The notes below the pieces were generated by a model. That model was not told where the DNA came from. It saw only the letters and a list, made by a program, of their open reading frames with translations, and did no database searches. Source: a virus (lineage: Duplodnaviria > Heunggongvirae > Uroviricota > Caudoviricetes). Taken from it: DNA of 4,219 bases. The stretch lies in the IMG/VR virus record IMGVR_UViG_2693429700_000012. One strand, given 5' to 3'. Position numbers and translations under genes: made by a program. This document shows, in pieces, positions 1,678 to 4,219 of the stretch (position 1 is its first letter; every line of letters begins with the position of its first letter).

Positions 1678-1763
1678 GACTCGAAAGCGTAGCTAAATTT
1701 CATTCGCCAAAAAGCCCGATGATGAGCGACTCACTACTGGCCACAGTTTATTGGTTTTCGTAA
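1674..1763 (+). pseudogene. 5' remnant of a lambda-type antiterminator Q gene (first ~20 codons conserved, then divergent and terminated)
   Basis: ATG 1674 overlaps the ninH stop (ATGA). Translation is MRLESVAKFHSPKSPMMSDS LLATVYWFS*. The first 20 residues equal the N-terminus of lambda Q as I recall it (MRLESVAKFHSPKSPMMSDSPRATA...). Similarity decays by about 1747 and the sequence then turns abruptly AT-rich. Confidence 0.55.
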
Positions 1764-1805
1764 CTGAGTCATTTTATTATTTTATTGCAACTTTTAATCT
1801 TTTAT

Positions 1806-1855
1806 AGTGCGAAATAAATGGAGCTGGCATTCATTTCGCACTTTATGTTTTTGTT
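1806..1855 (+). terminator. candidate rho-independent terminator for rightward nin transcription
   Basis: Inverted repeat AGTGCGAAATAAATG (1806-1820), loop GAGCTGG, CATTCATTTCGCACT (1828-1842): 14 of 15 bp pair. It is followed by the T-rich run TTATGTTTTTGTT. On the - strand the hairpin is followed by an A-rich run, so it is mainly a + strand terminator. Confidence 0.4.
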
Positions 1856-1888
1856 GGACTTATGTTATTTTGATTGAATTCAATTCAG

Positions 1889-2848
1889 TTAAAAAAAGAA
1901 GGTGATTGCTCCATTTATAAATGAATAGTCATCCCCTGTCTTGAATTCTGATGTTACTTTATTAAATGCTAGTGTGAAGGCTACAGGTGCATACCCAATT
2001 GTTGCGCCAACTTGATATTCATCAACAGTTTTGTTTAGCGATACTGTTGTTTGTTTCGTCTGTATTGTTTTTCCTTCGAGAGTATAGTTGCGATTGACAT
2101 CTCGTCTTTCCATACCTGCAAAAATCTTGTATTTGAATCCGCTTGTATCGGACATATGCATTAAACCACGGGGAGCCAGCAGACCAAAGCCATTATCCGA
2201 ATTGAAGGTTTTATCATTACCAATGGCAATGGTTGCGCCATATGCTACATATTGAAATAAGTTTCCAGTAACAGCAGAAACTTCAGGGTATAATCCAACA
2301 TTAGCACCTAAAATATCCATACTTGGTGTCATGGATAGCATCCCTTTTACAGTATAACCGTAGCGATTCTCTATTTGATCATCCCATGCATGATATTTTT
2401 CTGCCCCAATAATCTCATGAGCTTTATTTTGTACTTTCTGACCGCCTGCGTCGGGGCCAACAACACCTATGTCAGTACCTAATCGATAGCGAATCCAGTC
2501 ATTCGCAAGGGAGTTCCATTCAATACCAGTGTGAGTGTATGCACTAAAAGCTCTGTCTCCAGTTACAGCTGTGTTGTGTCTTTTATTACTGCCTGATGGA
2601 GAGTAAATATCTTGCGCAATATGGAGAGATAATTGGCTCGAGTCTGAGATATCGTGGCTATATCCCAGAAATAAGCCTTGTGAGTAATCATCTCTGTTTT
2701 CATGTTTATTGCCATAAATATCATTAAGTATTGGTTGAAACTTCCCTGCATCATCATTTGCTAATGATAATGCAAGGCTGTTCGCGATAGCTGAACACGT
2801 GGTAAATGACAGAGCAATAAAGACGCCAGCGATGACACTTTTTTTCAT
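1889..2848 (-). CDS. lpxR: outer-membrane lipid A 3'-O-deacylase LpxR family protein (prophage moron)
   Basis: 319 aa. N-terminal signal peptide MKKSVIAGVFIALSFTTCSAIA; C-terminus ends ...NGAITFFF, typical of a beta-barrel outer-membrane protein. With a 22-residue signal peptide the mature protein has N9, D10, S34 and H122 (precursor N31, D32, S56, H144), the positions I recall as the LpxR active site, and the mature length (~296-297 aa) agrees. Good SD AAGGAAG 8-9 nt upstream of the ATG. Lower GC than the flanking nin genes. Confidence 0.8.
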   Translation of the reverse strand: MKKSVIAGVFIALSFTTCSAIANSLALSLANDDAGKFQPILNDIYGNKHENRDDYSQGLFLGYSHDISDSSQLSLHIAQDIYSPSGSNKRHNTAVTGDRAFSAYTHTGIEWNSLANDWIRYRLGTDIGVVGPDAGGQKVQNKAHEIIGAEKYHAWDDQIENRYGYTVKGMLSMTPSMDILGANVGLYPEVSAVTGNLFQYVAYGATIAIGNDKTFNSDNGFGLLAPRGLMHMSDTSGFKYKIFAGMERRDVNRNYTLEGKTIQTKQTTVSLNKTVDEYQVGATIGYAPVAFTLAFNKVTSEFKTGDDYSFINGAITFFF

Positions 2849-2884
2849 ATGTTATTGTCTTCCTTTTTTTTGAATGGTGCGCGT

Positions 2885-2912
2885 ATTTTACATACATGAG
2901 TTTGTAATACAA
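2885..2912 (-). promoter_or_regulatory. candidate sigma70 promoter for lpxR (TTGTAT-16 nt-TAAAAT on - strand)
   Basis: On the - strand, TTGTAT (complement of 2907-2912), a 16-nt spacer, then TAAAAT (complement of 2885-2890), about 35 nt upstream of the lpxR ATG. Found by eye in an AT-rich region where such matches occur by chance. Confidence 0.2.
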
Positions 2913-3323
2913 GGTGCGTAATCAATATGATGTTTTATAATTGCGTGAGACAATTGATTTATTCGTTTTTTATTGCGGTTTTTATTATCTTTTAATGTAA
3001 CGGTGTTTTTATTAAGTGTGTTTGCGTGGTGTTTTATGTTTTTTATAATTTTTATTTTATTAAATTTAAAAGCATTAGTAATGGCTATTCTATATAGCAA
3101 TATAAGAACTGTTACAAAAAAAGGGGGGGCAATTACAGGTAGTTATGGATGATGAGTGAAACAGATATTGGAGAACCGGGGAATGAATGATGTCTGAGTC
3201 TTATATATCAGAACTCCTTCGCTGTCGCTGGGGGCTCCTGTGCTTATGTCGTTTCCCCGATTCGGTTTTGAACGATTACCGAATGTTGAAGAATTATGCC
3301 AAAATATAGAAAGGATTTACTGC

Positions 3324-4013
3324 ATGAATACCCAATATTTACAGTATGTTCGTGAGCAACTTATGGCAGCTACTGCTGACTTGAACGGAGCAACGAAAGG
3401 CCAGCTCGAAGCCTGGCAGGAGCATGCACAATTTGATACTGGTACATACAAACGAAAGAAGCCGCGCATTCTGGATGTGGTAACTGGCAAGATGATTACG
3501 CTGGATAATACGCCGACTTCCGGTAAGCAGTCGTACGCAAAAGGTTCATCCATTGCTTTGGTCAGCCCGGTTGAATTCTCAACCTCTTCATGGCGCCGCG
3601 CGGTTTTGTCTCTCGATGAACATCAGAAAGCATGGTTGCTTTGGTGTTACAGCGAAAGCGTTCGATGGGGGCATCAGGTCACCATAACGCAATGGGCATG
3701 GAGCGAGTTTAAAGATTTGTTAAGTAACAGAAAAATTGCAGGTAAGACACTGGATCGCCTGAAGACGTTAATCTGGCTGGCTGCACAGGATGTGAAGAGC
3801 GAACTTGCAGGGCGTGAGGCCTATGAATACCAGACACTGGCATCATTGGTGGGAGTGACAACAAAAAACTGGTCCGAGACATTTACTGAACGCTGGGTTG
3901 CAATGAAGCACATTTTTCTACAGCTTGATAGTGATGCTTTATTGCTTGTGACGAGAACACGTTCAAAACAAAAGGCAGCATTTTTACAGCAAAATATTGC
4001 AAAACTGGATTAA
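3324..4013 (+). CDS. putative late-gene antiterminator Q, non-lambda type (possibly phage 82/QuuQ-like); start may instead be 3240 or 3246
   Basis: Long ORF 3240-4013 in the track. I favour ATG 3324 (229 aa) because it has SD AAGGA 8 nt upstream and the 3240-3323 stretch is full of rare codons (CGA x2, ATA, AGG). The identification is by position: last gene of the nin/early-right operon, directly followed by a promoter and terminator pair, with a lambda-Q remnant upstream. The C-terminal region has an HTH-like segment (YQTLASLVGVTTKNWSE). I do not recall a matching sequence. Confidence 0.5.
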   Translation: MNTQYLQYVREQLMAATADLNGATKGQLEAWQEHAQFDTGTYKRKKPRILDVVTGKMITLDNTPTSGKQSYAKGSSIALVSPVEFSTSSWRRAVLSLDEHQKAWLLWCYSESVRWGHQVTITQWAWSEFKDLLSNRKIAGKTLDRLKTLIWLAAQDVKSELAGREAYEYQTLASLVGVTTKNWSETFTERWVAMKHIFLQLDSDALLLVTRTRSKQKAAFLQQNIAKLD

Positions 4014-4025
4014 AAGCCATATACT
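3997..4025 (+). promoter_or_regulatory. candidate late promoter (pR'-like): TTGCAA-17 nt-TATACT
   Basis: -35 TTGCAA (3997-4002), 17-nt spacer, -10 TATACT (4020-4025), overlapping the Q stop codon (4011-4013). Predicted start site near 4032. The first ~25 transcribed nt contain -10-like elements (TATGTT, TAAAAAAT), as expected for sigma-dependent pause sites at Q-dependent promoters. Confidence 0.4.
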
Positions 4026-4058
4026 TCATGCAAATTTGGTATGTTGTAAAAAATGTAT

Positions 4059-4085
4059 AAACCCGCTGCCGAGTGGGTTTTTTTT
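4059..4085 (+). terminator. candidate intrinsic terminator (tR'-like) about 30-50 nt downstream of the late promoter
   Basis: AAACCCGC (4059-4066), loop TGCCGA, GTGGGTTT (stem includes one G-U pair), followed by a run of 8 T (4078-4085). With the promoter above it would give a ~50-nt terminated transcript unless antiterminated. Confidence 0.45.
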
Positions 4086-4219
4086 ATGCCCTGAGTTGTA
4101 CTTGTACGGTAAACATGCTGGCTGCTATGTAATAGAGTTTTTTTAGCCTGTAACCTCTTGACGGCATTGAATTGCTTTTGTTATGAGTTGTAAGCCAATG
4201 TTATCATCTTGTATTGGGG

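Follow-up and report, generated by a model that had tools for sequence, protein, structure and literature searches.

The window, by which I mean the whole 4,219-nt stretch of DNA analysed here, contains an intact lpxR gene set among phage genes that all lie on the plus strand, so that lpxR is antisense both to its left-hand neighbours (NinX, NinF, YbcO, RusA, NinH) and to the right-hand ones, YlcG and Q (Table 1). The initial annotation had placed such a gene, antisense and in DNA of lower GC content, between ninH and Q. This placement holds, with the refinement that the immediate neighbours are a remnant of a Q gene on the left and ylcG on the right. GC content is 48% in the nin genes, 39% in lpxR and 28-29% in the two spacers that flank it, which gives 36% for the insert at 1746-3189. 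The Q gene proper starts at the ATG at 3324, which is conserved with the Q of phage 82, and not at the GTG at 3240 that opens the longest ORF. Downstream of Q, the phage 434 record annotates a terminator at the same place as the one found in the window, and an Rfam STnc240 match falls on this terminator (4020-4089) at 28 bits, below the gathering score of 55; the Rfam scan of the window returned nothing beyond this sub-threshold match. At the left edge, the transposase CDS of the IS1203 copy in the E. coli chromosome NZ_CP148401 ends at window position 82. A very hydrophobic 59-aa ORF with a TTG start also occupies 2973-3152 on the plus strand, where the spacer that precedes lpxR is rich in T. 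It is unannotated in the records examined and is probably an artefact of composition.

Table 1. Genes and sequence features of the window, in order of position, with the evidence on which each rests.
Feature	Position	Strand	Basis or remark
IS1203/IS629-type IS3-family right end (last transposase codons and terminal sequence)	1-124	plus	abuts ninX
ninX, 5'-truncated	140-469	plus	Pfam NinX; RefSeq
ninF	469-645	plus	Pfam NinF; RefSeq
small hypothetical gene	638-850	plus	RefSeq
ybcO/DUF1364	843-1133	plus	Pfam YbcO; RefSeq
rusA	1130-1492	plus	Pfam RusA; RefSeq
ninH	1489-1677	plus	Pfam NinH; RefSeq
lambda-type Q remnant, N-terminal 24 codons	1674-1745	plus	RefSeq partial antitermination protein; phage 434 lambda Q N-terminal fragment
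AT-rich spacer downstream of lpxR, 28% GC	1746-1888		composition
hairpin with 14-15-bp arms, between Q remnant and lpxR 3' end	1808-1842		RNA fold
lpxR, lipid A 3'-O-deacylase precursor, 319 aa	1889-2848	minus	ATG start, intact
signal-peptide coding part of lpxR	2783-2848	minus	N-terminal sequence inspection
AT-rich region upstream of lpxR, 29% GC (right part of insert)	2849-3177		composition
lpxR ribosome-binding site, AGGAAG	2859-2864	minus	sequence; phage 434 annotates an RBS at the equivalent position
candidate proximal lpxR promoter: TTGTAT, 16-nt spacer, TAAAAT	2912-2885	minus	read from sequence
right junction: last bases of the 3' end of a rus-type gene, GGGGAATGA	3178-3189	plus	alignment to phage 82 (X92588)
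ylcG (orf45 of phage 82)	3190-3309	plus	RefSeq; phage 434 annotation; phage 82 alignment
phage-82-type Q antiterminator gene	3324-4013	plus	Pfam PF06323, E 1.7e-91; start conserved with phage 82 Q
late-promoter-like site (TTGCAA, 17-nt spacer, TATACT), then short-transcript terminator (stem 4059-4080 and T run)	3997-4090	plus	scan

The ORF is confirmed as a member of the LpxR family, and every defining feature of the family that could be tested is present. A profile search with the Pfam LpxR model (PF09982) gave a match of 137.4 bits (E 7e-40, against a curated cut-off of 26 bits) that runs from end to end, with ORF residues 10-318 aligned to positions 2-320 of the 323 in the profile, and LpxR was the sole Pfam family to match at E <= 0.01. 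The crystallised LpxR of Salmonella Typhimurium (PDB 3FID, chain A) was matched at E 3.6e-153 in an alignment that pairs ORF residues 24-319 with positions 2-296 of the chain. The assignment as LpxR-like, originally made from the letters of the sequence, is therefore borne out, and the identity can be regarded as settled because the ORF is 74% identical to a protein of solved structure and 100% identical to an annotated gene. RefSeq names the gene 'lipid A deacylase LpxR family protein'. PagL, by comparison, is an outer-membrane beta-barrel lipid A 3-O-deacylase that also reduces TLR4 activation, but it belongs to a different family and removes the chain at the 3-position, whereas LpxR acts at 3'.

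A MAFFT alignment of four sequences (the window LpxR, the Salmonella 3FID chain, a Citrobacter homologue and a plasmid-borne E. coli homologue) places the window protein at 74%, 73% and 80% identity to the other three, respectively. The 74% to Salmonella extends across the mature protein, which has the same length and the same active-site residues, with Thr34 in Salmonella against Ser34 here. N31, D32, Q140, H144 and E150 of the precursor, which are N9, D10, Q118, H122 and E128 in mature numbering, are invariant in all four sequences; position 56 (mature 34) is Ser in the window protein and Thr in the other three. The initial annotation had named N9, D10, S34 and H122 as the catalytic residues shared with Salmonella LpxR. 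All four are present in the window protein, but Salmonella LpxR has Thr at position 34 (PMC6863877). Ser is also the residue of the active EHEC protein, and the published list of active-site and Ca2+-site residues for EHEC LpxR, with precursor numbering 31/32/56/140/144/150, is the same as for the window LpxR (PMC6863877).

The same annotation had called the product a secreted beta-barrel protein, and manual inspection of both termini agrees. The N-terminus, MKKSVIAGVFIALSFTTCSAIA followed by N, has the form of a signal peptide, with a KK n-region, a hydrophobic core and an AXA cleavage motif (A-I-A before N), and the predicted cleavage point coincides with the start of the mature 3FID chain. 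The C-terminus ends in TFFF, and a terminal Phe is usual for outer-membrane barrels. From the 74% identity to 3FID, the window LpxR would be expected to fold as a 12-stranded beta-barrel; the same protein has been homology-modelled on 3FID (PMC6863877).

The boundaries of the insertion can be read from its relatives. On the left, BLAST matches to the lambda, HK620 and P22 Q genes extend as far as window position 1744; on the right, homology to phage 82 starts only at about 3178, within the final bases of a rus-type gene. Since the published fragment of phage 82 (X92588) reads rus-orf45-Q with nothing between these genes and no lpxR, the lpxR segment is best understood as an insertion, and the two limits of homology define a foreign segment of 1.43 kb at about 1745-3177. 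The window has a complete rusA as well, 1.7 kb leftward of the rus 3' remnant. The 24 codons of Q that remain suggest that a module comprising lpxR, ylcG and the phage-82-type Q replaced most of an earlier lambda-type Q. Furthermore, this remnant follows ninH here and ninI in phage 434 and in EDL933, which argues for a later exchange of the nin genes to the left of the module.

In position and in composition lpxR is a lambdoid-phage moron. The lambda genes bor and lom are envelope or outer-membrane morons of deviant base composition that lie between conserved phage genes and are thought to be expressed from the prophage for the benefit of the host. Like them, lpxR is an envelope gene of different composition between conserved phage genes. 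Unlike them, it encodes a lipid A enzyme rather than an adhesin or a serum-resistance lipoprotein, and its place is within the delayed-early transcription unit, ahead of Q and in antisense orientation.

The same gene occurs in a viable phage and in a decayed prophage. In phage 434 the gene is number 65 (CPT_434_65, OL657226), which the depositors of the record named 'outer membrane beta-barrel lipid A deacylase LpxR'; it is identical to the window lpxR at 960 of 960 nt. Identity also holds for the Q remnant, for ylcG and Q, and for the region of the late promoter and terminator. The spacers differ by a small number of substitutions and indels, with 1374 of 1444 positions the same in an ungapped comparison, and the left flank of 434, a viable phage, is ninG-ninI where the window has rusA-ninH. 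In E. coli EDL933 the CDS of Z0955 (WP_000750155.1) is likewise identical over 960 of 960 nt, and its immediate context, consisting of the Q remnant, lpxR, ylcG and a phage-82-type Q, is shared with the window; Z0955 is the published name of the EDL933 LpxR homologue (PMC4699771), and MC001 is the name of the EHEC LpxR as a vaccine candidate. The EDL933 copy sits in a defective prophage at ybhC that lacks the immunity and replication region. To its left lie ninE-ninF-ninG and a phosphatase gene, as against IS1203 followed by ninX-ninF-ybcO-rusA-ninH in the window.

The window as a whole matches the E. coli chromosome NZ_CP148401 at 99.9% identity over 100% of its length. In that chromosome IS1203 truncates ninX, and the prophage lies next to ybhC, rearranged between two IS1203 copies. 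Bases 1-124 of the window are matched by NZ_CP148401 alone, and all other strains match from 125 on. By comparison, NZ_CP148746 carries the order nin-Q'-lpxR-ylcG-Q inside an apparently complete lambda-like prophage with repressor, cro, cII, O, P, ren, nin, lysis and head genes. Across complete E. coli genomes, the 1.44-kb module was found in 622 of 5,426, nearly always in single copy, and in 620 of these genomes its identity reaches 99% or more. Carriers include O157:H7 (EDL933, 86-24), O26, O103, O111 and O145. Among 50,697 phage records, an LpxR homologue is encoded in just two, both of them phage 434. Literature searches found nothing relevant that links phage 434 to a deacylase or lpxR to the term moron.

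About 1 kb beyond the right end of the window, in an intact relative prophage, an STnc100-like RNA was found upstream of a sialate esterase gene (L008, 16072-16276; 41.4 bits, E 1.5e-6, gathering score 47). According to a 2026 preprint, the PasD sRNA lies no further than 10 kb from lpxR and Q in over 98% of cases, and the STnc100-like sequence would fit that RNA.

LpxR genes are also found away from lambdoid phages. A copy on the 101-kb plasmid pJNE23-001_1 of E. coli JNE23-001 (L004, 5001-5960; 80% aa and 81% nt identity) is flanked by IS fragments and lies near a gene for an M91-family zinc metallopeptidase. Such plasmid copies number two among all complete E. coli genomes. Citrobacter sp. 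ANG330 encodes a homologue of 73% identity (L006, 4995-5960) in an islet of 31-39% GC between purB and phoPQ, and no phage genes were found near it; a wider scan of genome contigs with a single protein query returned one Citrobacter locus only. The lpxR genes themselves have 37-39% GC on the plasmid and in the Citrobacter chromosome. These two contexts suggest that LpxR genes are AT-rich, horizontally mobile units for which the lambdoid site is one of several. Against the 81%-identical plasmid copy, dN/dS for the window lpxR is 0.14, which points to purifying selection on the LpxR family.

How lpxR is transcribed is less directly read from the DNA. The candidate promoter at 2912-2885 agrees with the consensus at 8 of 12 positions and falls below the threshold of the generic promoter scan, which found no site of at least 9/12 close to the lpxR start codon and one 9/12 site further upstream, at 3115-3087. 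The candidate is nevertheless the best conserved promoter-like element, since its -10 block, TGTAAAATAC, is kept in the plasmid copy of lpxR. I infer the position of the promoter, the silencing of the AT-rich region by H-NS and any interplay with rightward phage transcription. The 329-bp upstream region, at 29% GC, would on this basis be an H-NS/Ler-responsive control region.

Reviews describe repression of Salmonella lpxR mRNA by MicF (PMC4651636). The 5' 33 nt of MicF were scanned against the window lpxR mRNA, with shuffled mRNAs for comparison. The query was the E. coli micF sequence, which was confirmed to lie between ompC and rcsD. The best duplex with lpxR had an energy of -17.1 kcal/mol, against -15.5 +/- 2.3 kcal/mol for the best in the shuffles, and pairing at the ribosome-binding-site region was worse than in the shuffles. 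With no duplex above chance, the scan gives no support for pairing of MicF with the window lpxR. As a separate observation, the 5' end of MicF forms a perfect 9-bp duplex with the N-D-D-A codons of the ANDDAG active-site motif (2752-2762, minus strand); its energy, -13 kcal/mol, is within the range of shuffled sequences.

The hairpin at the 3' side of lpxR might bear on the antisense arrangement. It folds at -19.1 kcal/mol on the minus strand (z -6.95) and at -16.4 kcal/mol on the plus strand (z -3.4), and a U-rich tail, to about 1856, follows it on the plus strand only. On the lpxR strand no canonical terminator was found 3' of the gene, the strong hairpin there being without a U-tract, and a simple terminator scan did not flag the hairpin. 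Beside the plasmid lpxR its arms are kept and its loop is different (L004, about 4930-4965), and this conservation of the arms next to a plasmid-borne copy suggests that the hairpin is part of the lpxR unit. It may act as a terminator of rightward transcription, as a 3' stem-loop of the lpxR mRNA, or as both, and it could equally be a relic of a former convergent neighbour. A doubtful but testable elaboration is that it acts as an insulator: in the lysogen, nin transcripts would be stopped before they reach lpxR, and on induction N-dependent read-through would silence lpxR by convergent transcription. If true, lipid A remodelling would thereby be coupled to lysogeny. The hairpin is the sole lead here that is mildly new, and it is a speculative one.

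In an intact phage such as 434, polymerase must cross lpxR to reach Q. The earlier suggestion that antisense read-through confines lpxR expression to the lysogen may apply to 434 and to intact prophages such as the one in NZ_CP148746; no published expression data for a 434 lysogen were found. In the NZ_CP148401 and EDL933 copies no early-right transcription is expected, because the early region has been cut off by IS1203 or deleted. The phage cycle is thus irrelevant to lpxR in these copies, and the published control is that by Pch and Ler.

What the enzyme does is known from work on the same gene and its relatives, and its enzymatic activity, its control by Pch and Ler and its immune effect are here taken from the literature. 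LpxR enzymes are Ca2+-dependent hydrolases of the outer membrane, in which the attacking water is positioned by His122 (PMC6260217) and the Ca2+ site is made up of the remaining conserved residues (PMC6863877). As summarised in later papers, Ogawa 2018 identifies EHEC lpxR as a 3'-O-deacylase that removes the 3'-acyloxyacyl group in a Ca2+-dependent manner, describes its transcription together with the LEE genes, for which Pch and Ler are required, and reports that an lpxR mutant provokes stronger inflammatory and phagocytic responses via TLR4 (PMC6393859, PMC6863877). LpxR-dependent deacylated lipid A has already been reported for EHEC Sakai. Independent data are in agreement: lpxR belongs to the LEE/Ler modulon (PMC9263587), and its expression falls along with that of LEE when yhaO or yhaJ is mutated (PMC4699771) and when STEC has adhered (PMC7649339). 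Its product has been tried as a vaccine antigen as well (PMC6863877, PMC9629502).

Applied to the window, these reports suggest the following sequence of events. The precursor would be exported by the Sec pathway and cleaved after Ala22, and the mature protein would insert in the outer membrane as a 12-stranded beta-barrel. There, with Ca2+ required, it would hydrolyse the ester bond by which the 3'-acyloxyacyl group is attached to lipid A, with His122 activating the attacking water and with Asn9, Asp10, Ser34, Gln118 and Glu128 presumably forming the Ca2+ and oxyanion site. The under-acylated product would stimulate TLR4/MD-2 more weakly. The gene would be a moron in the full sense, benefiting the host and carrying its own expression signals while pointing against the early-right operon, and its transcription would start in its own AT-rich upstream region. 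In LEE-positive E. coli, Pch and Ler would switch it on together with the type III secretion genes. I put the probability of this account as a whole, a functional LpxR carried as a lambdoid-phage moron and controlled by Pch/Ler in LEE-positive E. coli, at about 0.93. The integrity of the gene, its family, active site, junctions, composition and distribution, and its identity to the 434 and EDL933 copies are matters of observation.

Two other roles for the gene deserve to be weighed against it. The carrier phage 434 is a fully functional laboratory phage from sewage without a link to LEE or to Pch/Ler, and the gene is also found in intact prophages of strains that do not look like EHEC (from humans, chickens, soil and seawater). 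Such carriers would suit a gene that keeps the LpxR fold but whose selected role serves the phage, whether by remodelling LPS against superinfection or by altering the release of outer-membrane vesicles, and in Salmonella lipid A deacylation has been linked to vesicle formation (PMC4958258). I nevertheless consider a phage-serving role very improbable: lpxR shows a strong association with LEE when genomes are compared (PMC6724679), and it is the response of the host that the published phenotypes address. The chemistry of the deacylase would in any event be the same.

It is also conceivable that lpxR is an inert passenger, intact because it was acquired recently and either unexpressed or inactive in its hosts. 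The chromosomal copies in E. coli are all at least 99% identical, so that conservation within E. coli alone cannot show selection, and Salmonella LpxR was reportedly found by Reynolds in 2006 to be latent under ordinary laboratory growth. The comparison with the diverged plasmid copy tells against this, however, at a dN/dS of 0.14, as does an active site that is invariant in four lineages. Expression is regulated in RNA-seq and modulon data (PMC9263587, PMC4699771, PMC7649339), and a mutant phenotype has been published (Ogawa 2018 via PMC6863877). Taken with these data, an inert gene is scarcely credible, even less so than one that serves the phage. A functional deacylase that benefits the lysogen is thus the reading to be preferred, and the lysogenic-conversion role first suggested for the gene stands, on published work with the nucleotide-identical EHEC gene (Ogawa 2018, as summarised in PMC6393859, PMC6863877 and PMC9263587).

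The finding of lpxR at this locus is therefore correct, but it is already known, and the window adds no new biology: all of it has been published for a gene of identical nucleotide sequence, and the name given in RefSeq and in the record of phage 434 is already the correct one. The additions made here are modest: the exact junctions of the insertion, marked by what is left of lambda Q on one side and of a rus 3' end on the other; the finding that the classical viable phage 434, intact prophages and decayed EHEC prophages share the gene unchanged; and a testable idea on the strand-specific hairpin beside it. For the bacteria that carry it, the meaning of the gene lies in its chemistry: 3'-O-deacylation lowers the endotoxicity of lipid A and helps attaching-and-effacing E. 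coli to escape TLR4-driven inflammation and phagocytosis.
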